Assembly: GCF_056712565.1 (NCBI RefSeq)
Contig: NZ_CM160072.1
Reading direction: 5' to 3' (one strand)
Length of the DNA stretch: 64,000 nucleotides
Both the position numbers and the translations under genes were made by a program. Position 1 is the stretch's first letter. Every line of letters begins with the position of its first letter. The notes under the pieces were generated by a model. It saw nothing but the letters and a program-made list of their open reading frames with translations, had not been told where the DNA came from and made no database searches. Below, one piece after another: positions 560 through 64,000 of this stretch.

Positions 560-970
560 ATGAAGTGGCAACAACGTGTTCGTGTCGCAACTGGCCTAAG
601 TTGCTGGCAGATTATGTTGCATTTACTGGTAGTGGCGCTGCTGGTGGTGGGCTGGATGAGTAAAACTCTGGTTCACGTCGGCGTAGGATTATGCGCACTG
701 TATTGTGTCACGGTAGTGATGATGCTGGTGTTTCAGCGCCACCCCGAGCAACGCTGGCGTGAGGTGGCAGACGTGCTGGAAGAGCTGACCACGACCTGGT
801 ATTTTGGCGCAGCGCTGATTGTTCTGTGGCTGTTGTCCCGCGTACTGGAAAACAACTTTGTGCTGGCGATTGCAGGGCTGGCAATCCTTGCCGGCCCGGC
901 GGTAGTGTCTTTGCTGGCGAAAGATAAGAAGTTACATCACCTTACGTCTAAACATCGCGTACGCCGCTGA
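560..970 (+). CDS. ybhQ: Inner membrane protein YbhQ (136 aa)
   Basis: [23 protein letters not shown]..., hydrophobic, length and sequence match YbhQ; 3' end overlaps convergent ybhR. Confidence 0.9.
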
Positions 971-2038
971 CCCTGTCGTGGCCGTTATCACCAGTAGCGG
1001 CCACAAACTATTCCACACAATATCCAGACTCGCATCCTTCAAATAAATCTGCTTGGTAATGTCCGTAAAGTGGCGAATAGGGTTAATCCACGTCAGATTT
1101 TGCAGCCACACTGGCATGTTTTCCACCGGCGAAACGTAACCGGAAAGGAGAATGGCGGGCATCATAAAGACAAACACGCCGATAAACGCCTGCTGTTGTG
1201 TTGAACAGAGTGATGAAATCAACAGACCGAATCCCACCAGCGATAAACCGTAAATCACCATCGTGAAGTAGAACAGCGCCAGCGATCCGGCGAAGGGGAT
1301 TTGATACGCCCAGATACCAATCGCCAGCACAATGGTGGCCTGGAAGGTGGCGACAATTAATGCCGGTACGGCTTTGCCGATGAATATCTGCCAGGTGGTG
1401 AGGGGCGAAACCAGCAACTGATCGAGCGTACCTTGTTCACGTTCACGGGCGACGGAAAGTGAAGTGACTATCATTACGCCGATAGTGGTGATCATGGCGA
1501 TCAGCGACGGCACCACAAACCATTTGTAGTCGAGATTCGGGTTATACCAGTTGCGTACCACCAGCTCGCTGTTGTTGGGTTTCGGTTTTCCTTCCAGCAG
1601 CTCCTGCTGATAATTTTTGACGATCTGTTGCAGGTAGTTGGCGGCAATTTGCGCACTGTTGGAGTTACGCCCGTCGAGGATCAACTGCAACGGCGCGGTC
1701 TGGAAGGTATCCAGTTTGCGCGAGAAGTCAGCCGGGAAACGCACCAGTAGTAACGCCTTTTGTGTGTCGATGGTCGGGCGGATCTCCTGCGGGCTTTTCA
1801 GCAGCAGCACATGGGTAAAGGCGCTGGCGCGGGCAAAACGTTGAGTAAGTTCTACCGAGTGCTCGCCGTTATCTTCATCGTAGATGGCGATGGTGGCGTT
1901 GGTCACTTCCAGCGTGGCGGCGAACGGGAACAGGATCACCTGAATTAGCACGGGTAAAATCAGAATTGCGCGGGTTTGCGGTTCGCGCAGCAGCGACTGC
2001 AACTCTTTGCGGATTAACGTCCATAAGCGATGAAACAT
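932..2038 (-). CDS. ybhR: ABC-2 family exporter permease YbhR (368 aa)
   Basis: 368-aa ORF with ABC-2 permease character; position downstream of ybhS as in the cecR-ybhGFSR operon. Confidence 0.92.
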
Positions 2039-2048
2039 GCTCTTCTCC

Positions 2049-3174
2049 CTAATCCAGCCGACGTTTGATTTTCAGCCACGTCAGGCCGATAAACATCACC
2101 GCCGAAGCGATCAAAAACAGCACGTTCACTATCAGCACCACTGGAATATTCCCGGCGAGGAACAGGCTTTGCAGGGTGCTGACGAAATAACGTGCGGGAA
2201 TAATGTACGTCACCGCGCGGATCACCGCGGGCATACTGTCTATCTGAAATATAAAGCCGGAAAGCATAATCGACGGCAGAAAAGCCGCGTTCAGGGCCAC
2301 CTGAGCGGCGTTGAACTGGTTGCGGGTAATCGTGGAAATCAGCAGCCCCATCCCCAGGGTACTGAGTAAAAACAGGCTGGAGATAAAAAACAGAATCAGC
2401 AGCGACCCGCGATACGGCACGCCGAGAATAAACACCGACACCAGCATACACAGCAACATCGCCAGCATCCCGAGAAAGTAATAAGGGATCAGCTTACACA
2501 GCAGCAGCTCCGTGCGGGTAATCTCCGTAGAGAGCAAAGCCTCCATGGTGCCGCGTTCCCATTCTCGCGCTACCACCAGCGAGGTGAGAATCGCGCCGAT
2601 GACCGTCATGATAATGGTCACCGCACCGGGGATAATAAAGTGCTGGCTTATCGCCGCGGGGTTAAACCAGTAGCGGGTTTGTACATCAATAAGCGGTTCA
2701 AAAGTCTGCCCGTTATCCTCCGCGCGCTGCATTTGCCAGATCTGCCAGATCCCTTCGACATACCCCTGCACAAAGTTAGCGGTATTCGGCTCACTGCCGT
2801 CGGTGATCACCTGAATCGGTGCGGTGGCGTTGGCGCGCTCCATCTGTTCGGCGAAATCCACCGGAATAACCACCAGACCGCGAATTTTCCCCGCCTGCAT
2901 TTTGGCGATCAGTTCCTGACGGTTATCGCTGATGGTGGCGTCGATGTAGGGCGAACCGGTCATGGTGTGGGTGAAATCCAGCGCCGCTTCGCTACGCTGT
3001 TCCAGTAAAATCCCGACGCGCAGCTTGCTGGAGTCGAGGTTAATGCCGTATCCAAAAATAAACAGCAGTAGCAGTGGGATCACTACCGCAATCAGCCAGC
3101 TACTCGGATCGCGAACGATCTGCCGTGTCTCTTTGACGCACAGCGCCCGCACGCGACGCCAGGACAGGATCGGA

Positions 3175-3182
<8 letters not shown>
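2049..3182 (-). CDS. ybhS: ABC-2 family exporter permease YbhS (377 aa)
   Basis: 377-aa ORF paralogous to ybhR; overlaps ybhF stop by 8 nt. Confidence 0.92.
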
Positions 3183-6573
<3,391 letters not shown>

Positions 6574-6801
6574 CGCACAGTCCATTCTTAATCAAATGAT
6601 TGATTAAGATTATGACTCCATAGGGGAGTTGTCCAGTATGGCTAAGAATTTTAGCTACGCCAGTCACAGGGATAATTTATGCGCTGCGTCACAAAAACTG
6701 CTACACTCCGCTCCCTCATGACATTGTGGTTTTTGTCATTTTCCTTTTCAGTATCTCCCTGAAAACTACACCGGTAACGGTCGGGGCGGTTCGGAGTAGT
6801 T

Positions 6802-8163
6802 ATGTCTTTCGATTCTTTGGGTTTAAGCCCTGATATCCTGCGCGCCGTTGCCGAGCAGGGTTACCGTGAACCCACCCCTATTCAGCAGCAGGCGATCCCT
6901 GCGGTGCTGGAAGGCCGCGACCTGATGGCCAGCGCCCAGACCGGTACCGGCAAAACAGCGGGCTTTACGCTGCCGCTGTTGCAACACCTGATCACTCGCC
7001 AGCCGCACGCCAAAGGGCGTCGTCCGGTACGCACGCTCATTCTTACCCCGACCCGTGAACTGGCGGCGCAGATTGGCGAAAACGTCCGTGATTACAGCAA
7101 ATATCTGAACATTCGTTCGCTGGTGGTGTTTGGCGGTGTCAGCATTAACCCACAAATGATGAAGTTGCGCGGCGGCGTTGATGTGCTGGTGGCAACGCCG
7201 GGACGTCTGCTGGACCTGGAACATCAAAATGCAGTGAAGCTGGATCAGGTTGAAATCCTCGTCCTTGATGAAGCTGACCGCATGCTCGACATGGGCTTTA
7301 TCCACGATATCCGTCGCGTGTTAACAAAACTGCCAGCGAAGCGCCAGAACCTGTTGTTCTCCGCGACCTTCTCTGACGATATTAAAGCCCTGGCGGAAAA
7401 ACTGTTGCACAACCCGCTGGAAATCGAAGTGGCACGCCGCAATACTGCGTCTGATCAGGTGACCCAGCACGTTCACTTTGTCGATAAGAAACGCAAACGC
7501 GAATTGCTGTCGCATATGATTGGGAAAGGGAACTGGCAGCAGGTGCTGGTGTTTACCCGTACCAAACATGGCGCTAACCATCTGGCTGAACAGCTTAATA
7601 AAGACGGCATCCGTAGTGCGGCGATCCACGGTAATAAATCGCAAGGTGCGCGTACTCGTGCGCTGGCCGATTTTAAATCGGGCGATATTCGTGTACTGGT
7701 GGCAACTGACATCGCTGCGCGCGGTCTGGATATCGAAGAGTTGCCGCACGTCGTCAACTATGAGTTACCAAACGTACCGGAAGATTATGTTCACCGTATC
7801 GGGCGTACTGGCCGTGCGGCGGCAACTGGCGAAGCATTGTCGCTGGTGTGTGTTGATGAACACAAACTGCTGCGTGATATCGAAAAACTGCTGAAAAAAG
7901 AGATCCCGCGCATTGCGATTCCGGGGTATGAGCCGGACCCGTCAATCAAAGCCGAACCGATCCAGAACGGTCGCCAGCAACGTGGCGGCGGTCGTGGACA
8001 GGGCGGTGGTCGCGGTCAACAGCAACCACGCCGTACGGAAAGTGGTGCGAAGTCTGGTAACGCGAAGCCCGCAGAAAAACCGTCTCGTCGTCTCGGCGAT
8101 GCCAAACCGGCAGGCGAACAACAACGTCGCCGCCGTCCGCGTAAACCTGCCGCTGCGCAGTAA
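6802..8163 (+). CDS. rhlE: ATP-dependent RNA helicase RhlE (DEAD-box)
   Basis: Q-motif and Walker A (AQTGTGKT), DEAD box ([14 protein letters not shown]), [11 protein letters not shown] motifs; Arg/Gly-rich C-terminal tail. Confidence 0.95.
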
Positions 8164-8699: not shown

Positions 8700-10850
8700 A
8701 TGGCATTAACCGCCGCGCTTAAAGCGCAAATTGCCGCCTGGTATAAGGCGCTTCAGGAACAGATCCCCGACTTTATTCCCCGTGCGCCGCAGCGGCAGAT
8801 GATTGCGGACGTCGCCAAAACGCTGGCCGGAGAAGAAGGGCGGCATCTGGCGATTGAAGCCCCTACCGGCGTTGGGAAAACGCTCTCCTATTTGATCCCC
8901 GGCATCGCCATTGCCCGCGAAGAGCAAAAAACGCTGGTGGTAAGTACCGCCAACGTGGCATTGCAGGATCAGATCTACAGCAAAGATTTACCGCTGCTGA
9001 AAAAGATCATTCCCGATCTTAAATTCACTGCCGCTTTTGGGCGTGGGCGCTACGTTTGCCCGCGTAATCTGACAGCGCTCGCCAGCACTGAGCCCACGCA
9101 ACAGGATCTGCTGGCGTTTCTTGACGATGAACTGACGCCGAACAATCAGGAAGAGCAAAAACGTTGTGCGAAGCTGAAGGGCGATCTCGACACTTATAAA
9201 TGGGATGGTCTGCGCGATCATACTGATATCGCTATAGATGATGATCTCTGGCGTCGTTTGAGTACCGACAAGGCCAGCTGCCTCAACCGCAACTGTTATT
9301 ACTATCGCGAATGCCCGTTTTTTGTCGCTCGTCGGGAAATTCAGGAAGCGGAAGTGGTGGTGGCAAACCATGCGCTGGTGATGGCGGCGATGGAAAGCGA
9401 AGCGGTATTGCCTGACCCGAAAAATTTACTGCTGGTGCTGGACGAAGGTCATCACCTGCCGGATGTGGCGCGGGATGCGCTGGAGATGAGCGCCGAAATC
9501 ACCGCGCCGTGGTATCGGCTACAGCTGGACTTGTTCACGAAACTGGTCGCTACCTGCATGGAGCAGTTTCGCCCGAAGACCATCCCGCCGCTGGCGATCC
9601 CTGAACGTTTGAATGCGCATTGTGAAGAGTTGTATGAGCTTATCGCCTCGTTAAACAACATTCTCAATCTCTACATGCCTGCCGGGCAGGAGGCAGAGCA
9701 CCGTTTTGCGATGGGCGAACTGCCAGATGAAGTGCTGGAGATCTGCCAGCGGCTGGCAAAACTCACCGAGATGCTGCGTGGCCTGGCGGAGTTATTTCTT
9801 AACGATTTAAGTGAGAAAACCGGCAGCCATGACATTGTACGTCTGCATCGGTTGATTTTGCAGATGAACCGCGCATTGGGGATGTTCGAGGCGCAAAGCA
9901 AACTCTGGCGGCTGGCGTCTCTGGCGCAATCTTCCGGTGCGCCGGTGACCAAATGGGCGACGCGGGAAGAGCGCGAAGGGCAGCTACACCTTTGGTTTCA
10001 CTGCGTGGGAATACGTGTCAGCGATCAGCTGGAAAGGCTGCTGTGGCGCAGTATTCCGCACATTATTGTTACCTCCGCAACCTTGCGTTCGCTGAACAGT
10101 TTTTCGCGTTTGCAGGAGATGAGTGGGCTGAAAGAGAAAGCGGGCGACCGTTTTGTGGCACTGGATTCCCCTTTTAACCACTGTGAACAGGGCAAAATTG
10201 TTATTCCCCGGATGCGCGTTGAGCCTTCCATCGACAACGAAGAGCAGCACATTGCCGAAATGGCGGCCTTTTTCCGTGAACAGGTGGAGAGCAAAAAACA
10301 TCTCGGTATGTTGGTGCTGTTTGCCAGCGGGCGTGCGATGCAGCGCTTTCTCGACTATGTGACGGATTTACGCCTGATGTTGCTGGTGCAGGGCGATCAG
10401 CCACGTTATCGCTTAGTTGAACTGCACCGCAAACGCGTTGCCAACGGTGAGCGTAGCGTGCTGGTGGGCTTACAGTCCTTTGCCGAAGGTCTTGATCTGA
10501 AAGGCGATCTGCTCAGCCAGGTGCATATCCACAAGATCGCTTTTCCGCCCATCGACAGCCCGGTGGTGATCACCGAAGGTGAATGGCTGAAAAGCCTCAA
10601 CCGCTATCCGTTTGAGGTGCAAAGCCTGCCGAGCGCTTCGTTTAACCTGATTCAGCAGGTTGGGCGACTGATTCGAAGCCACGGTTGCTGGGGGGAAGTG
10701 GTTATCTACGACAAACGCTTGCTGACAAAAAATTATGGCAAGCGACTACTGGATGCATTACCGGTATTTCCGATAGAGCAACCGGAAGTCCCTGAAGGTA
10801 TAGTTAAAAAGAAAGAAAAAACGAAATCCCCACGCCGTCGGCGGCGTTAA
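8700..10850 (+). CDS. dinG: ATP-dependent DNA helicase DinG (716 aa)
   Basis: 716-aa ORF MALTAALKAQIAAWYKALQEQ..., Walker A APTGVGKT, DEGHH box, Fe-S cluster cysteines (CLNRNCYYYRECPFF). Confidence 0.95.
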   Translation: MALTAALKAQIAAWYKALQEQIPDFIPRAPQRQMIADVAKTLAGEEGRHLAIEAPTGVGKTLSYLIPGIAIAREEQKTLVVSTANVALQDQIYSKDLPLLKKIIPDLKFTAAFGRGRYVCPRNLTALASTEPTQQDLLAFLDDELTPNNQEEQKRCAKLKGDLDTYKWDGLRDHTDIAIDDDLWRRLSTDKASCLNRNCYYYRECPFFVARREIQEAEVVVANHALVMAAMESEAVLPDPKNLLLVLDEGHHLPDVARDALEMSAEITAPWYRLQLDLFTKLVATCMEQFRPKTIPPLAIPERLNAHCEELYELIASLNNILNLYMPAGQEAEHRFAMGELPDEVLEICQRLAKLTEMLRGLAELFLNDLSEKTGSHDIVRLHRLILQMNRALGMFEAQSKLWRLASLAQSSGAPVTKWATREEREGQLHLWFHCVGIRVSDQLERLLWRSIPHIIVTSATLRSLNSFSRLQEMSGLKEKAGDRFVALDSPFNHCEQGKIVIPRMRVEPSIDNEEQHIAEMAAFFREQVESKKHLGMLVLFASGRAMQRFLDYVTDLRLMLLVQGDQPRYRLVELHRKRVANGERSVLVGLQSFAEGLDLKGDLLSQVHIHKIAFPPIDSPVVITEGEWLKSLNRYPFEVQSLPSASFNLIQQVGRLIRSHGCWGEVVIYDKRLLTKNYGKRLLDALPVFPIEQPEVPEGIVKKKEKTKSPRRRRR

Positions 10851-10877
10851 TGATGTGAGTCAGGTAAGGAGTCGTAA

Positions 10878-13066
<2,189 letters not shown>

Positions 13067-13213: not shown

Positions 13214-13290
13214 GTAGGTCTGATAAGACGCGGTAGCGTCGCATCAGGCATCTGTTGCCGGATGCGGCGTAAACGCCTTATCCGTCCTAC
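13214..13290. repeat. REP/BIME cluster in the hcxB-ybiJ intergenic region
   Basis: gtaggtctgataagacgcggtagcgtcgcatcaggca followed by ccggatgcggcgtaaacgccttatccgtcctac. Confidence 0.6.
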
Positions 13291-19573: not shown

Positions 19574-20500
19574 ATGTCCGCCCAGAAACCGGGGTTGCAT
19601 CCGCGCAACCGTCATCACAGCCGCTACGATCTCGCCACGCTTTGTCAGGTCAATCCTGAACTCAGGCAATTCCTCACGCTTACACCCGCCGGGGAGCAAA
19701 GCGTAGACTTTGCCAATCCGCTGGCGGTGAAGGCGCTCAATAAGGCGTTGCTGGCCCATTTTTACGCCGTAGCGAACTGGGATATCCCGGACGGTTTTCT
19801 CTGCCCACCAGTACCGGGTCGGGCGGATTATATTCATCACCTTGCCGATTTACTGGCAGAAGCAAGCGGAACAATTCCAGCTAATGCCAGCATTCTGGAT
19901 ATCGGCGTTGGTGCGAACTGTATTTATCCGCTGATTGGCGTACATGAATATGGCTGGCGTTTTACTGGTAGTGAAACCAGCAGCCAGGCGTTAAGCAGTG
20001 CGCAGGCGATCATCAGTGCTAATCCGGGGCTTAACCGCGCCATTCGTCTGCGTCGGCAAAAAGAGAGTGGGGCGATTTTTAACGGCATCATCCATAAAAA
20101 CGAGCAATACGATGCGACCTTGTGTAACCCGCCATTCCACGATTCCGCCGCTGCGGCACGGGCAGGTAGTGAACGTAAACGCCGTAACCTGGGGCTGAAC
20201 AAAGACGATGCACTGAACTTTGGTGGTCAGCAACAGGAGTTGTGGTGTGAAGGCGGTGAGGTCGCTTTTATCAAAAAGATGATTGAAGAGAGCAAAGGCT
20301 TCGCGAAGCAGGTGATGTGGTTTACCTCGCTGGTATCTCGTGGTGAAAACTTACCGCCGTTGTATCGTGCTCTGACGGACGTAGGTGCGGTGAAGGTGGT
20401 AAAAAAAGAGATGGCCCAGGGGCAAAAGCAGAGCCGCTTTATAGCCTGGACCTTTATGAACGACGAGCAGCGCCGCCGTTTTGTCAATCGCCAGCGTTAA
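19574..20500 (+). CDS. rlmF: 23S rRNA m6A1618 methyltransferase RlmF (308 aa)
   Basis: Start trimmed to [23 protein letters not shown]-binding motif [16 protein letters not shown] and NPPF catalytic motif. Confidence 0.92.
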
Positions 20501-22722
20501 AGCGTTGGTTCCCCCGGCGGCAACGGTTCAGCCGGGGTCGCGCCCGGAGCAGGCAGCACCTGATAAGTCTGCACTGGCGCGCGAACGCCCGCCAGGTCGA
20601 AATGTTTTTTCACCTGGCTGTCGAGGGCAAAGCGTACCGTCCACTGTTTGAGTGGCAGCGTGGTGAACGAAACACGCAGTGTAAACGCGGTATTGCTTAA
20701 GCCGACAATCCCGGCAAAATTCGGTTCACCAATAATCAGCCCGCGAATTTCTTCGTTTTCCATTAATTCCGCTACCGCATCTTTCAGTGCCTGATTGGCT
20801 TTATCAGCATCTTCATGGCGATCAACATCGTAGTTTGCCACTACCGAACCAATACCGCGGACGAAGTTAGCAAAGGTGGTTATCGAAGACCACGGAATGA
20901 TGTGATACGCCCCGGTATCCTGGCGCACGCCCACGGAGCGAATCGACATCCGTTCCACAGTGCCGGTCAACGGCCCGATAGTCACCAAATCTCCAGTGTT
21001 CATGCCGTTTTCAAACTGAATAAATACTCCGGTAATAATATCTTTCACCAGCGTTTGCGAACCAAACGAGATAGCCAGACCTAATGCCCCGGCACCTGCC
21101 AGCAATGGCGCGATATTGACGCCGATTTCCGACAACACAATCATGATGGTGATGGTACTGATAATCACCGCCAGCGCGTTACGGAACAGCGTCAGCAGGG
21201 TTCGCGTACGGGCGCTGGGTAGCGGGCGGCCATGAATATCCGAAGCCAGCCGGTTTTCTATCAAACTGGCGAGCACCGTCCAGCCAACCGCCGAGAAGAA
21301 AAGAATGAGTGCGATACGGATCAGGATATCTACGGTTTTCTGCCCCGCGCCGTTTTGCAGCCAGTTCCAGAAATCGAACAATCCCCATGCGCTCAACAGC
21401 AGCATTACCGCCACGCAGACTGTCAGAATACGCGCTGTTTTCAGTGCCGCCGAAAGCCAGCCATTCAGCCGTTTTTGCAGCTCCGGATAATTTCGCTGAG
21501 TATGTGGCGAGAGGGTGATGGTTTTCGCCAACCAGCGGGAAAACATACCGGAAACAAATGCTGCGATACCAATAATCGCCAGGCTGCGCACCGTTGCACC
21601 CATCATAAATTTCAGGCTGTTGCCCGGATCGAACAACGAAAAGAAAAACAGCACGATAAAATAGGCGCTTGCCAGCCAGTGCCACACCAGCGCAAAGGCG
21701 CGGATAAACAGGCTGAAAAAGGCCAGCGAATGCTCCGCAAAATTGAGCAAATGCTGGGTGATCTCTTTTTTATTACGAAAAATCAGGTACAACGCCCAGA
21801 CGGTCATGCACAGCATAATGATGACGTTCGCCAGCGCACCTATCTGTACATTCACCTGATTAGAGATAATCGGCACAGCCACAATCAGACCATAGCCAAT
21901 CAGGCTGCTTAACCAGCTCAGGCGACGACTCCAGTAACGGGCGGTCTCGTCATGAATCGTGAACGGGCGCAGTTCAGCCACGTTTGGGCAAAAAATCAGG
22001 CGTAGTACGGCTTTGAAAAATTCAATCAGGGCAAAGGCGTTGAGAAACAAACTTTGTTGGAAAGCGATGGTGCGACTGCCCGCATTCAGGTTGTCGCTTA
22101 ATACCTGGCCGACAAATAATGTCAGTGCCAGTAACAGCAGGTCGATAATAAACGCCCCGATGATCATCGCCGGAAGCTGCAACCAGTTACTGCGCTCACG
22201 ATTTTTTTGCCGCGCCCACTGGCCCATTTTGCGATACAGCGGCAGTGCGCACAGACGAATCAGCCAGTAAAAACCAAACACTAATACCGCTAACATTGAA
22301 AAGTGGGTCAGCGCATTGCTGAAGGTTTGTGGATTAAACGGCTTATGCGGGGAGCCGGTGATATTGCGATAAAGTTGCCCGAAGCGGGCGGAAAGGGCTT
22401 CACCATAATGGCGGCTGACTTCGGTGACTTTTTGCAGCACGGTTTGCTCTTCAACCAACGTCGGCGGCACGATCTTCGGTACGGGTTCCGCAGGAGGCGT
22501 AGCGGCGACGGTGCGCAACTGGTCGATCAACTCTTTACGCGAGGTGTCATTATCCAGCACATCCGCCAGTGCGCCATAGGCCGCTTTTTTTTGTTCGATA
22601 TCCGGTTCCGGGGCCGGTTCAGTCGTTGAGTCCGTTGTCGTTGTGGTTGTAACGCCGGGTATGGATACCGCGTGGGCAGGTGCGCCCAACAGGCAGAAGA
22701 GGATGAACAGGATCCACCGCAT
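20497..22722 (-). CDS. ybiO: Mechanosensitive channel YbiO (MscS family, 741 aa)
   Basis: Start trimmed to [18 protein letters not shown]; multiple TM segments and MscS-like C-terminal domain; Thr-rich low-complexity stretch after the signal peptide. Confidence 0.9.
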
Positions 22723-22838
22723 GACTCCTCCAGTGAGAAAATAGAGCAAAAAGATAAGTATAGATGCTGGAGGCTGGGCGATTTTAAATGAGAGGAATCT
22801 GGTGTGCCTCCCTTTCGGGGGAAAGGGAGGCTGAGAAG

Positions 22839-23561
22839 TTAAGAGACGTGCTGCAAAAATTCCTGCAAGCGCTGGCTCGGTGGGTTCTTGATCAACACCT
22901 GCGGATCGCCATCTTCCGCAATCCGGCCTTTGTCGATAAAGATCAGGCGCGAAGCTACTTTCTCGGCAAAACCGATTTCGTGTGTCACGATCACCATCGT
23001 CATCCCTTCTTCAGCCAGATCCTGCATAACCTTCAGCACTTCATGGCGCAGTTCCGGGTCAAGAGCGGAAGTCGGTTCATCAAACAGCATCATTTTCGGC
23101 TTCACCGCCAGCGCGCGGGCAATCGCCACACGCTGCTGTTGACCACCAGAAAGTTCGGAAGGGTAGTGATGTGCACGTTCTGCCAGACCGACTTTCGCCA
23201 GGAGCTCACGCGCCAGTTTTTCCGCCTCTTCTTTATTCGCGCCACGCACGCGTAGCGGGCCAAACATGACGTTTTCCAGCGCCGTCAGATGCGGGAAGAG
23301 GTAAAACTGCTGGAACACCATACCCGCTTCCTGGCGAATCAGGCGCTCATCAACTTTCGGATCGTTAACCTTCAGGCCATCGACAATCAGATCGCCGGAG
23401 GTGATTTCTTCCAGTTTGTTGATGCAGCGCAGCAGGGTCGATTTACCGGAACCGGACGGCCCGATAATCACCACGACTTCGCCCTGAGCAATGTTCAAAT
23501 CGATATTGTGCAGCACCTGGGTTGGACCAAAATGCTTGGAGACGTTTTTAAATTCAATCAC
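22839..23561 (-). CDS. glnQ: Glutamine ABC transporter ATP-binding protein GlnQ (240 aa)
   Basis: Walker [10 protein letters not shown], signature LSGGQQQRV, Walker [11 protein letters not shown]. Confidence 0.95.
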
Positions 23562-59311: not shown

Positions 59312-60544
59312 ATGCAAAATAAATTAGCTTCCGGTGCCAGGCTTGGACGTCAGGCGTTACTTTTCCCTCTCTGTCTGGTGCTTTACGAATTTTCAACCTA
59401 TATCGGCAACGATATGATTCAACCCGGTATGTTGGCCGTGGTGGAACAATATCAGGCGGGCATTGATTGGGTTCCTACTTCGATGACTGCGTATCTGGCG
59501 GGCGGGATGTTTTTACAATGGCTCCTGGGGCCGTTGTCGGATCGTATTGGCCGCCGTCCGGTGATGTTGGCGGGAGTGGTGTGGTTTATCGTCACCTGTC
59601 TGGCAATATTACTGGCGCAAAACATTGAACAATTCACCCTGTTGCGCTTCTTGCAGGGCATAAGCCTCTGTTTCATTGGCGCTGTGGGATACGCCGCAAT
59701 TCAGGAATCCTTCGAAGAGGCCGTTTGTATCAAGATCACCGCGCTAATGGCGAACGTGGCGCTGATTGCTCCACTACTTGGTCCGCTGGTGGGCGCGGCG
59801 TGGATCCATGTGCTGCCCTGGGAAGGGATGTTTGTCTTGTTTGCCGCATTGGCAGCGATCTCCTTTTTCGGTCTGCAACGAGCTATGCCTGAAACCGCCA
59901 CGCGTATAGGCGAGAAACTGTCGCTGAAAGAACTCGGTCGTGACTATAAGTTGGTGCTGAAGAACGGCCGCTTTGTGGCGGGGGCGCTGGCGCTGGGATT
60001 CGTTAGCCTGCCGTTGTTGGCGTGGATCGCCCAGTCGCCGATTATCATTATTACCGGTGAGCAGTTGAGCAGCTATGAATATGGCTTGCTGCAAGTGCCT
60101 ATTTTCGGGGCGTTAATTGCGGGTAACTTGCTGTTAGCGCGTCTGACCTCGCGCCGCACCGTACGTTCGCTGATTATTATGGGCGGCTGGCCGATTATGA
60201 TTGGTCTGTTGGTCGCTGCTGCGGCAACGGTTATCTCATCGCACGCGTATTTATGGATGACCGCCGGGTTAAGTATTTATGCTTTCGGTATTGGTCTGGC
60301 GAATGCGGGACTGGTGCGATTAACCCTGTTTGCCAGCGATATGAGTAAAGGTACGGTTTCTGCGGCGATGGGGATGCTGCAAATGCTGATCTTTACCGTC
60401 GGTATTGAAATCAGCAAACATGCCTGGCTGAACGGGGGCAACGGACTGTTTAATCTCTTCAACCTTGTCAACGGCATTTTGTGGCTGTCGCTGATGGTTA
60501 TCTTTTTAAAAGATAAACAGATGGGAAATTCGCACGAAGGGTAA
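59312..60544 (+). CDS. mdfA: Multidrug efflux MFS transporter MdfA/Cmr (410 aa)
   Basis: Start trimmed to [20 protein letters not shown]; 12-TM MFS. Confidence 0.95.
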
Positions 60545-60548
60545 AAAA

Positions 60549-60577
60549 ATGCCTGATTGCTTTGTGCGATCAGGCAT
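60549..60577. terminator. Putative bidirectional terminator between convergent mdfA and ybjH
   Basis: Inverted repeat atgcctgat...atcaggcat preceded by an A-run. Confidence 0.4.
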
Positions 60578-60584
60578 TCTCGAA

Positions 60585-60851
60585 TTAATGGTGATGGTCG
60601 TCAATCTGGTGTTCGATAACCATCCCTTCACCTACGCTGGCAAGATGGCGAACATAAGGATGCGGGCGGTAAGCCGGAGCTGGCGCAGGAGCCACATAGA
60701 CGGTTTGCGGCACAGTCGCGACGCTGACTGAATCAGGAACCACAACCACTTTGTATCCACTCGGCACATCGACGGTGACACTTTGCGCCATCGCCACACC
60801 AGTAAAGCCCATTAAAAGCGCGCCCAACAGTAGACAATTTTTCATAATCAT
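60585..60851 (-). CDS. ybjH: YbjH, small secreted protein of unknown function
   Basis: Signal peptide MIMKNCLLLGALLMGFTGVAMA; start choice uncertain (ORF track extends 15 codons upstream); C-terminal His-rich tail. Confidence 0.6.
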   Translation of the reverse strand: MIMKNCLLLGALLMGFTGVAMAQSVTVDVPSGYKVVVVPDSVSVATVPQTVYVAPAPAPAYRPHPYVRHLASVGEGMVIEHQIDDHHH

Positions 60852-60935
60852 TTCGCCTGAAATAATGCAGCGGGTTAATTTCCGCGAATTATGCAATCTT
60901 CATTCAGGCATTGTGTTGCCGGGCGTGCTGCCGTT

Positions 60936-61751
60936 TTATTGGTTAAATGGCGCTTCGTGTTTAAGCACTTTATCGATCACATCCAGTACGCCTTCACGGT
61001 TATTGGAGCCTGCCCGGTATTTTGCCGCTGCGACGACCGCGCTGCCGGCATTTTCCATTGCAAAACTAAAGCCTGCCTGACGCAGCATCTCAATATCGTT
61101 ACCGCCATCGCCAAAGACCACCACTTCGCTGTCGTCTATTCCCCATAATTTCTGCAGTTGGCGAAGGCCATTGGCTTTATGTACACCGGGGATAATCAGA
61201 TCGATGCTGCCGTTGCCGGTATGGACCGGTACCATGATATCGCCGATGGCCTCATGTAATGCTTTTTGCACTTGTGGGATCAGTTCGTCAGAGAGATTAA
61301 GGCCAAATTTAAAGAAGATATCTTCTAAGTTGTCAAAGTTATCGACGTATTCCAGACGGTGATAATACATTTCCGCCACCGTTTTCATGGCATCGTCATA
61401 TTTTTTGAGGGTATAGGCGCTATTTTTTCCGCAGGCAATAATTTCCACTTCCGGGCGCGTCAGCAAATGTTCTACGACAGTAGTAAACGCATCCTTCGAC
61501 AGCTCGCCATTAAAAACATCTTTGCCTTCGCTCACTACCCAGCCGCCGTTTTCAGCCACAAAGGCAATTTCATTAGCAATTTCAGGAAAGAAAGAGATCA
61601 ACTGATAATATTGATTCCCGCTGGCGACCACAAAGCGAATGCCTTGTGCTTTCATTTGCTGATACTGAGCCATAAACCGCTCACGGTTATAGGTTTTTTG
61701 ATCGCTTAAGAAAGTACCATCCATGTCTACCGCAATTAATTTAATGCTCAT
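60936..61751 (-). CDS. ybjI: HAD-superfamily phosphatase YbjI (Cof type, 271 aa)
   Basis: Start at second Met ([15 protein letters not shown]); strong paralogy to ybiV. Confidence 0.92.
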   Translation of the reverse strand: MSIKLIAVDMDGTFLSDQKTYNRERFMAQYQQMKAQGIRFVVASGNQYYQLISFFPEIANEIAFVAENGGWVVSEGKDVFNGELSKDAFTTVVEHLLTRPEVEIIACGKNSAYTLKKYDDAMKTVAEMYYHRLEYVDNFDNLEDIFFKFGLNLSDELIPQVQKALHEAIGDIMVPVHTGNGSIDLIIPGVHKANGLRQLQKLWGIDDSEVVVFGDGGNDIEMLRQAGFSFAMENAGSAVVAAAKYRAGSNNREGVLDVIDKVLKHEAPFNQ

Positions 61752-62959
61752 CAACTATTCTCCATCGCCGTCTGCGTTTTGGTATCGGGTTTGGCGACGG
61801 CTTTCGCGACAATAGCCGCGAGAATAACCAGCGCCAGTACAACCAGCATTGCACTACGTAATCCATAATGTTCGCCGAGATAGCCCAGCAGCGGCGGCCC
61901 GACGAGGAAAGCCAGATAACCGGTCGTAGCTACCACGCTGACGCGGGTTGGTGCATCGGGGCCGGTATCGCTGGCGGCAGAAATAGTCAGCGGGAAGCCC
62001 AACGAGGCACCCAGTCCCCAAAGTACAACAGACACCCCAGCGACCCAGGCGCTATCGACAAAAATAATCAGCCCAATACCCAACGCCCCCATTAGTGCAC
62101 TGGCCCGAACCACGGCAACGCGACTGTAACGGTCAATGAACCAACCGCCGGTAAAGCGTCCAACGGTCATCCCCAGGGTAAAACCGGCATAAATCAGCGA
62201 GCCGGAAGTAGGGCTAAAACCGTGACCATCAACCATTAATAAGGGTAACCAGTCGTTGGCAGAACCTTCGGCAAAGGCCATCGCCAGCACCACAACACCA
62301 ATCAACAGCAACTGGATATCCCGATAAAAAGGTACGCCTTTTTCACCATGCTGGGTGCCATCGGCAGCATTTTTGCCCGTACCGTCAGGGATTGCCTGAA
62401 TGGCGATATAAATAGGTGCGATGCCTACCAGCGCCGCCAATAAAATATGCACCGTTGCCGGAACGCCAAAGGCCGTCAGTGCCATCCCGACACCTGCGCC
62501 TGCCAGCGTGCCCAGGCTATAAAAACCGTGCATCATCGGTAAAACCGTCTTATTCATTTCTCTCTCAACGGCGGCACCTTCAACGTTTATCGCCACTTCC
62601 GCAGAACCAAAACTAGCCCCAAAGACGCCGAGACCAACGGCAAAGAGCAAGGGCGATGTCAGCCAGAGTGCCAGACTTAATATCATCATCCCAATCAATG
62701 CGCAGGACATCGTCACAAGGATGACATTACGCGTCCCAAAGCGTTTCACTAACCACGCCGAGCAGAGAATACCGCTCATCGAACCGATCGACAGACCAAA
62801 GAGAACACCGCCCATTTCAGCGATCGAGACAGAGAGAATATCGCGGATAGCAGGCGTACGGGTTGCCCAGGACGCCATTAACAGGCCTGGCAAAAAGAAG
62901 AACATAAACAGCGCCCAGGTTCGGCGTTTCAATGCATTACGTGAAGAATTTACGGTCAT
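61751..62959 (-). CDS. ybjJ: MFS transporter YbjJ (402 aa)
   Basis: Start trimmed to [20 protein letters not shown]; 12-TM MFS. Confidence 0.9.
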
Positions 62960-63042
62960 AGACCACGTCAAAATAAGAAGAGGGAAGACAACATTAGCAA
63001 GACTGTGTACATTTGTACACAATTGCAGAGAGAGGAAATGAC

Positions 63043-63579
63043 ATGCGTCGCGCTAACGATCCGCAACGGCGAGAAAAAATTATCCAGGCCACGCTGGAGG
63101 CGGTGAAACTTTACGGAATACATGCTGTTACACACCGCAAAATTGCTACCCTTGCCGGGGTGCCGTTGGGATCGATGACCTACTATTTTTCAGGAATTGA
63201 TGAGTTGTTGCTGGAGGCGTTCAGCCGTTTTACTGAGATCATGTCCCGGCAATATCAGGCATTTTTTAGCGATGTTAGTGATGCTCCAGGCGCATGCCAG
63301 GCTATCACCGATATGATCTACAGCTCACAGGTCGCAACGCCGGATAATATGGAGCTGATGTACCAGCTCTACGCGCTGGCTAGCCGAAAACCGCTCTTAA
63401 AAACGGTAATGCAAAACTGGATGCAGCGCAGTCAACAAACGCTCGAACAATGGTTTGAACCCGGAACCGCCCGCGCGCTTGATGCGTTTATTGAGGGAAT
63501 GACGCTGCATTTTGTCACCGACCGTAAGCCGCTATCACGCGAGGAGATTTTGAGGATGGTTGAGAGGATTGCTGGGTAG
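63043..63579 (+). CDS. rcdA: TetR-family transcriptional regulator RcdA/YbjK (178 aa)
   Basis: Start trimmed to [20 protein letters not shown]; TetR HTH. Confidence 0.9.
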
Positions 63580-63627
63580 TAGATAAATTTCAGGCAACAA
63601 AAAAACCATTTATGTAAACGGGTTAAT

Positions 63628-63665
63628 GAAAACAATAAGTTAGATTAAAAACAATAAGTTAGGTT
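63628..63665. repeat. Tandem direct repeat (2 x ~18 bp) between rcdA and the integrase stop
   Basis: aaaacaataagttagatt followed directly by aaaaacaataagttaggtt; AT-rich. Confidence 0.45.
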
Positions 63666-63683
63666 GGTGGTCAGTGGTGGTTA

Positions 63684-64000
63684 TTACGGGGTAATGCCAA
63701 CCGCTGCCGCCACTTTGTCGCCACTTGGCAGCGTTGCCAGAGGATTGAAACGGAGCGCCGTTTCCAGATGATCCGGTGCCAGATGTGCGTAACGCATAGT
63801 CATTTTTATATCGTGGTGTCCGAGAATTTTTTGTAAGGCCAGAATGTTTCCACCCGACATCATGAAGTGCGCCGCAAACGTATGGCGCAGAACGTGTGTG
63901 AGTTGACCGCGAGGGAGCACGATAGACGTTTTTTCCATCACGGATAAAAATTGAAAATAGCAGTCTGTGAAGAAATTGAACCCATCAAGCGCCATGATCT
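63684..64000 (-). CDS. Phage-type tyrosine recombinase (integrase), C-terminal catalytic part only; gene continues beyond the window end
   Basis: Minus-strand translation ...LTHVLRHTFAAHFMMSGGNILALQKILGHHDIKMTMRYAHLAPDHLETALRFNPL... carries the conserved HxxR box and the RY(A)H tyrosine nucleophile motif of the integrase family; it resembles P2-family integrases (from memory, unverified). Confidence 0.8.
   Translation of the reverse strand, partial: IMALDGFNFFTDCYFQFLSVMEKTSIVLPRGQLTHVLRHTFAAHFMMSGGNILALQKILGHHDIKMTMRYAHLAPDHLETALRFNPLATLPSGDKVAAAVGITP

Follow-up and report, generated by a model that had tools for sequence, protein, structure and literature searches.

Junction between rcdA and the integrase gene

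The window, which is the whole 64-kb stretch of DNA that was analysed, ends in a short region where a host gene meets a phage gene. The host gene to the left of the junction is rcdA (ybjK). It occupies positions 63043-63579 on the plus strand in the list of open reading frames and carries the name rcdA in the annotation of every RefSeq genome that matched; its coordinates were carried over from positions 19644-20180 of the E. coli MS8345 locus through an alignment of 99.9% identity. To the right lies the 3' part of a prophage int gene (63684 to beyond 64000, minus strand), an open reading frame for the C-terminal ~105 residues and the stop codon that continues past the window end. The int gene reads toward the junction. 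The two genes are separated by a gap of 104 bp (63580-63683), and RybB is not present in this gap.

The translation of the int fragment is identical to the C-terminus of the 350-residue integrase of MS8345, WP_000290937.1. The full-length MS8345-type integrase matches the integrase family phrog_1 at 6e-75 and has partial matches to tyrosine-recombinase models (Xer/integron-integrase). It is 39% identical to P2 Int, 99% identical to the integrases of a set of Klebsiella P2-like phages and 100% identical to that of Escherichia phage vB_EcoM-813R9. A silent C at 63765 inside int, where MS8345 has T, is the sole difference between the two sequences over 62000-64000 besides the base at 63605 discussed below.

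The point at which the host sequence stops is sharply defined. When the window is compared with the empty B2-type site of MCJCHV-1 (L006), the two are identical from rcdA to 63609 except at 63605, where the window has A for C, and a base-by-base walk showed that the divergence is complete from 63610 on. Of 5,422 genomes that aligned, approximately 4,300 non-lysogens align up to 63609 (query position 566) only. After 63609 the window contains an attP arm followed by the 3' end of the P2-type tyrosine integrase gene. Because the breakpoint at 63609/63610 is discrete and a tyrosine integrase gene lies beside it, the region is read as an attL junction. We regard it as close to certain that 63580-63683 is the attL of a P2/186-like prophage that was integrated into the 3' end of rybB by site-specific recombination of the tyrosine-recombinase type. 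The window ends at 64000 within int and holds approximately 390 bp of the element. This portion carries no P2-like gene content beyond int; such genes are seen in MS8345 and REL606 through their RefSeq annotation. The far junction of the window's own genome and its intact rybB gene would be expected from near-identical genomes and from the population counts given below.

Absence of RybB and the 14-nucleotide remnant

The gene rybB encodes a sigma-E-dependent, Hfq-dependent sRNA. In MC1061, a K-12 derivative with an empty site, the rcdA stop is at position 2036 and RybB is found at 2053-2131 on the minus strand with a score of 105.3 bits against the Rfam family RF00110. RybB thus lies 16 nt past the rcdA stop, which bears out the expectation, stated in an earlier note on this DNA, that rybB lies on the minus strand just past the rcdA stop in K-12. 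The 5' sequence of RybB that the same note gave also agrees with MC1061, where the 5' end is GCCACTGCTTTT. RybB has been reported to be a core sRNA of E. coli (PMC3318445).

The observation that rybB is not recognisable after rcdA in the window was confirmed by three kinds of search. RF00110 has a gathering threshold of 40 bits, and the positive controls MC1061 and MS8345 scored 105.3 bits each. No RybB match at the gathering score was found across the whole 64-kb window, and none was found in 60000-64000 even at E<=10. A pattern made of the 46-nt RybB 5' body (GCCACUGCUUUUCUUUGAUGUCCCC...) had 0 matches in the window with up to 3 mismatches allowed. The 81-nt rybB sequence, compared with the whole window by blastn-short, returned chance 10-12-mers elsewhere and none at the junction; the remnant described below was missed by blastn-short because the mismatch at 63605 splits it. 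Full-length RybB was also looked for in 63580-63683 itself, where its presence would have spoken against the proposed integration, and it was not found. Degenerate RybB copies near the junction were considered as well, and at low stringency Rfam gave chance matches to CRISPR-DR, snoRNA and miRNA families only, all far below their thresholds.

What does remain of rybB is its extreme 3' end. The sequence AACAAAAAAACCAT at 63596-63609 corresponds to the last 14 nt of rybB with 13 of 14 bases identical, and no second match of this kind exists in the 64 kb, where chance would give 0.02. The Rfam alignment in MC1061 defines where RybB ends, and the remnant 14-mer coincides exactly with the last 14 nt of that alignment. 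On the minus strand it represents the U-tail and 5 nt from the 3' side of the terminator stem, and it makes up the minimal core, which does not vary between attB and attP. A complete RybB Rho-independent terminator, with hairpin and U-tail, is not present in 63580-63683; the last 14 nt alone remain. The earlier note had seen a likeness to the terminator tail over about 11 bp. The tail remnant is real, and its length is 14 nt, slightly more than was stated.

Two observations on RNA annotation may be added. The RefSeq/PGAP feature tables of the E. coli records examined (MC1061 and MS8345) contain no rybB feature, even with an Rfam score of 105 bits. The window also has a match to naRNA4 (RF02564), a nucleoid-associated RNA family derived from REP elements, at 13217-13287 on the minus strand, with 72.7 bits against a gathering score of 59.5; it is unrelated to the junction.

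Far junction in related lysogens

Over 62000-64000, the window and MS8345 have all but 2 of 2001 bases in common (99.9% identity). The MS8345 prophage is a complete-looking P2/186-like element of 33 kb, in which int is followed by cI, cII, fil, and genes for a replication endonuclease, portal, terminase, scaffold, a P2-family capsid protein, lysis and tail proteins, and then D and ogr. At its far junction, between ogr and ybjL, there is a full-length RybB that scores 105.3 bits, and the sequence from rybB to ybjL, promoter region included, is identical to that of K-12. E. coli B REL606 has the same layout from int to ogr and an intact RybB at attR, followed by ybjL. The REL606 element is defective, with pseudogenes and internal deletions, and carries a retron. 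A third case is an IMG/VR contig (L007) from another host genus that is approximately 80% identical to E. coli. It contains a remnant of about 7 kb (929-8132), made up of int and a few open reading frames, which is bounded by the same core; its RybB is intact at attR with 105.6 bits. From this core and this RybB it follows that the rybB site serves as a target, with elements decaying there, in more than one genus.

The earlier note had proposed that the element was integrated into the 3' end of rybB and that the intact sRNA gene was rebuilt at the far junction. Both proposals gain support. The breakpoint between host and phage lies inside the terminator tail with an integrase gene beside it, and MS8345, REL606 and L007 all have the rebuilt gene; for the window's genome the rebuilt gene is expected from its relatives and from the population counts.

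The cargo of the prophages at this site varies. MS8345 has a DUF4041 gene between int and cI (locus positions 21420-23096). In REL606 the retron, with its effector and reverse transcriptase, lies near the replication module (locus positions 9993-12041); we take it to be the retron called Ec86 in the literature. This variation fits the reported role of the rybB site as a defence-island hotspot.

Frequency of the junction in E. coli

The junction of rcdA, core and int is found in 1,062 of 5,426 complete E. coli genomes (approximately 20%), and the phage arm alone in 1,121 of the same genomes, nearly always as a single copy. Occupancy was taken from these two queries. A 90-nt query matched 1,771 genomes, and this number was rejected as an occupancy count since empty B2-type sites may pass on the 35-40 nt of host sequence in the query. 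The segment that contains rybB and the ybjL-side flank is full length in 5,418 of the 5,426 genomes. The junction is common while rybB is kept, and therefore integration does not cost the host its sRNA gene. In E. coli CE10 (NC_017646.1, approximately 1,788,821-1,788,971) the phage arm and the int 3' end adjoin a LysR-family gene, not rcdA; this copy could represent a secondary site or a rearrangement.

Attachment core and strand exchange

A 297-nt version of the phage attachment site was built from the attR flank next to ogr and the attL flank next to int. This reconstructed attP aligns with Klebsiella phage KP12 as a single stretch (297/297 nt, 97%) between ogr and int. Since attP is contiguous in KP12, the phage itself possesses a copy of the rybB 3' end. 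In the annotation of Klebsiella phage 4LV2017 the same core is labelled attL.

In B2-type lysogens the allele table gives an extended att core of 27 bp, ATAAATTTCAGGCAACAAAAAAACCAT (63583-63609), that is common to attL and attR. Within it, positions 14-27 on the plus strand, AACAAAAAACCCAT, are invariant in attB, attP, attL and attR except at position 23, where the attL of the window and that of L007 have A. Left of this 14-bp core the similarity depends on the host, and it extends the core to 27 bp in B2-type hosts. The core is directly repeated at both ends of the element in MS8345, REL606 and L007; the far end of the window's element lies beyond 64000. A core of 10-30 bp shared by the two ends, as the earlier note had anticipated, is thus found in related lysogens, where 14 bp are invariant and 27 bp are shared in B2-type hosts.

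The alleles in these lysogens bracket the site of exchange. REL606 has a K-12-type host flank whose bases at core positions 5, 9, 12 and 13 are not those of the phage. At all four positions the REL606 attL has the host alleles and the attR has the phage alleles, and for this reason the exchange is placed to the right of position 13. In L007 position 23 is A in attL and C in attR, which suggests that the exchange occurs to the left of position 23, if the A of L007 is the phage allele and not a later mutation. From the bracket given by the three lysogens, strand exchange would take place inside the 14-bp core and probably within AACAAAAAA, a segment of 9 bp (63596-63604) that encodes the RybB U-tail.

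The base at 63605 is a single-base difference in the core, A in the window (A7CC) and C (A6CCC) in empty sites, in the phage attP and in the E. coli lysogens examined. A full-length match with the 63605 A allele was found in none of the 5,426 complete E. coli genomes. No complete genome is identical to the window at the junction, the best ones differing at 63605, so that the far junction of the exact lineage of the window was not recovered. The exact 30-mer with A at 63605 is present in 4 IMG/VR contigs: one is L007 from another genus, one (L010) has diverged arms and two (L008 and L009) are uninformative. Because it occurs in these 4 contigs, the A at 63605 is a real, recurrent allele and no obvious sequencing error. 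Most likely it is a polymorphism on the phage side, immediately to the right of the crossover, with a small chance that it impairs excision. If the A is simply phage-side, the crossover is narrowed to the 9-bp AACAAAAAA. With A at 63605 the attL core of the window does not have the sequence that attR should have, judging by the other lysogens, and L007 has this same difference within one genome. It has been considered that 63605 lies in or near the Int overlap, so that attL and attR would be heterologous and the prophage partly locked in place, an early stage of domestication at the rybB hotspot. This appears improbable.

Alternative explanations

Could the strain be a natural rybB mutant that has truly lost the gene by deletion or degradation? 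The window itself does not contain RybB and ends short of the far junction, 8 of the 5,426 complete genomes are without the full rybB-ybjL segment, and prophage remnants such as the element of about 7 kb in L007 do occur at the site. However, the breakpoint coincides exactly with the boundary of the att core rather than with some random deletion endpoint. Full-length RybB is kept at attR in each of the three lysogens examined, the degraded L007 included, and rybB is kept in 5,418 of 5,426 genomes while at least 1,062 carry the junction. The report that RybB is a core sRNA of E. coli (PMC3318445) points the same way, and true loss is considered very improbable. It is harder to dismiss the idea that rybB is intact at the far end and the element is itself a decayed remnant or an integrase-only islet. 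Approximately 390 bp alone lie in the window, the elements of REL606 (defective) and L007 (about 7 kb) provide precedents, and the core mismatch at 63605 could impair excision. Against this, the window is 99.9% identical to a junction in MS8345 that leads into a complete-looking P2-like genome of 33 kb, and its int fragment is intact and encodes the same protein sequence as in MS8345. A decayed element is therefore judged unlikely, while still deserving some weight.

The remnant might also be a chance A-rich match, in which case the phage would target the rcdA-ybjL intergenic region and not the sRNA gene. At 14 bp the invariant core is short, it is rich in A, and tyrosine integrases read DNA sequence and not gene function. 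This explanation is nevertheless extremely improbable: the 14-mer is unique in the window where 0.02 matches would be expected, it is the exact end of the Rfam RybB alignment, and the phage attP bears the same 14-mer. Moreover, the same target is used in Klebsiella and in another genus, where the flanks differ and rybB is conserved.

The preferred reading remains site-specific integration into the 3' end of rybB, and the following sequence of events is proposed. The attP of the phage carries the last 14 nt of rybB (AACAAAAAACCCAT) together with similar flanking bases. Strand exchange would occur within the core, most likely in AACAAAAAA, which matches the RybB U-tail. The rcdA side is then left with 14 nt of rybB joined to the P' arm of the phage and to int, as seen in the window, and the rybB body, its sigma-E promoter and a complete terminator would come to lie at attR beside ybjL, approximately 33 kb away. 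The sRNA gene would thus be displaced and not destroyed.

Relation to known rybB elements

The rybB attachment site has already been published and the present case is ordinary. Archer et al. (2011, PMC3032704, Table 2) listed P2-type prophages at the 'rybB ncRNA' in E. coli W, B and Crooks, namely Rybb*W, Rybb*B (with retron Ec86) and Rybb*Cr. The insertion site and the phage type of these prophages are as in the window, and the core, the P' arm and the layout from int to ogr are shared with REL606. REL606 differs in having a K-12-type host flank, an extra small open reading frame between the core and int, and the retron cargo, whereas the window has a B2-type host flank, int directly after the arm and, at 63605, an A of its own. 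Hochhauser, Millman and Sorek (2023, PMC10121019) described E. coli defence-island hotspot #29, in which Felsduovirus-type prophages within rybB are the sole kind of element, with 109 occupied genomes. Hotspot #29 is the site seen in the window. Their study was concerned with defence cargo and not with the anatomy of the att sites, and the count here is 1,062 of 5,426 complete genomes.

In Klebsiella pneumoniae an island at this gene has been named Kpn38RybB (Hudson et al. 2014, PMC4048246, Table 3). The Klebsiella phages 4LV2017, KP12 and the Kp48xx series share the core and the P' arm with the window and have integrases that are 99% identical, a comparison of the element with the phages that covers int and attP only, and their host belongs to a different genus. 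KP12 provides the unintegrated attP, while the window provides the integrated attL. The name Felsduovirus is that of Hochhauser et al. 2023 and the name Elveevirus is that applied to 4LV2017.

Integration at the 3' ends of RNA genes is a general theme. P4-type elements at tRNA genes and elements at ssrA are attributed to Williams (2002 and 2003) in the part of that literature that is cited in PMC10121019. Phage integration at the sRNA genes ryeB and ryeE was described by Bobay et al. (2013, PMC3603311), and P2-type prophages at cyaR by Archer et al. (2011, PMC3032704). Bobay et al. are cited by Hochhauser et al. for integration at rybB; the main text of that paper (PMC3603311) describes sRNA-adjacent hotspots generally and does not name rybB. 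The logic is the same for tRNA, tmRNA and sRNA genes. The attP contains a duplicate of the terminal stretch of a gene for a small structured RNA, with some of its terminator or acceptor stem, and, as proposed for the present case, the gene is rebuilt at one junction while a short remnant is left at the other. The rybB target differs from a tRNA in being the gene of an Hfq-dependent sigma-E sRNA, with an invariant core of 14 bp that consists of the U-tail and 5 nt of the stem.

The apparent absence of a core sRNA in the window is thus a routine effect of annotation and synteny. In approximately 1 in 5 E. coli genomes rybB is found about 33 kb from rcdA, with a P2-like prophage occupying its 3' end. 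This displacement is easily misread as loss because RefSeq/PGAP records do not carry a rybB feature, and caution is needed at rybB when sRNAs are annotated by synteny. The site is an established hotspot of prophages that bring defence genes with them, among which is retron Ec86 in E. coli B. The current understanding of the site is unchanged, and the small additions made here are the sequence-level bracket of the crossover and the description of the att-arm repeats.

Arms of the attachment site and a candidate terminator

A repeat search of the P' arm found two tandem 18-nt repeats, AAAACAATAAGTTAGrTT, on the plus strand at 63629-63646 and 63648-63665, with a spacing of 19 bp. Each holds a 12/13 match to the IHF consensus WATCAANNNNTTR, at 63630-63642 and 63649-63661 respectively. 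The repeats, with their near-consensus IHF motif AAACAATAAGTTA, recur in the attP of Klebsiella phage KP12. Their sequence makes them candidates for the binding of an accessory factor.

A second type of repeat is the 20-nt direct repeat CTGCCGCCAnTTTGTCGCCA, which consists of two CGCCAy half-sites 11 bp apart. Its P' copy, on the plus strand at 63704-63724, falls within the 3' end of the int coding sequence and has no second occurrence in the window, where 0.01 copies would be expected by chance. In KP12 the repeat is present on both arms of attP, 183 bp apart (positions 1539-1558 and 1722-1741 of locus L004). In MS8345 and REL606 the copy on the P arm lies past the stop codon of ogr. The P' copy is kept in the ~80%-identical L007, where the P-arm counterpart is degenerate. 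These repeats may serve as arm-type binding sites for Int and are put forward as candidates.

Folding also predicted a hairpin on the phage side of the junction (63603-63624, minus strand), with a 9-bp stem AACCCGUUU/AAAUGGGUU that is followed by the U-run of the core. A simple consensus terminator scan did not call this hairpin in the window. Its z-scores are weak, from -1.6 to -0.3, with -1.6 and -1.3 in MS8345 and KP12. The folding energy is -9.2 kcal/mol in MS8345, -9.1 kcal/mol in KP12 and -5.0 kcal/mol in the window, where the change at 63605 weakens the hairpin. It is plausible that this hairpin is a terminator for int that re-uses the tail of RybB.
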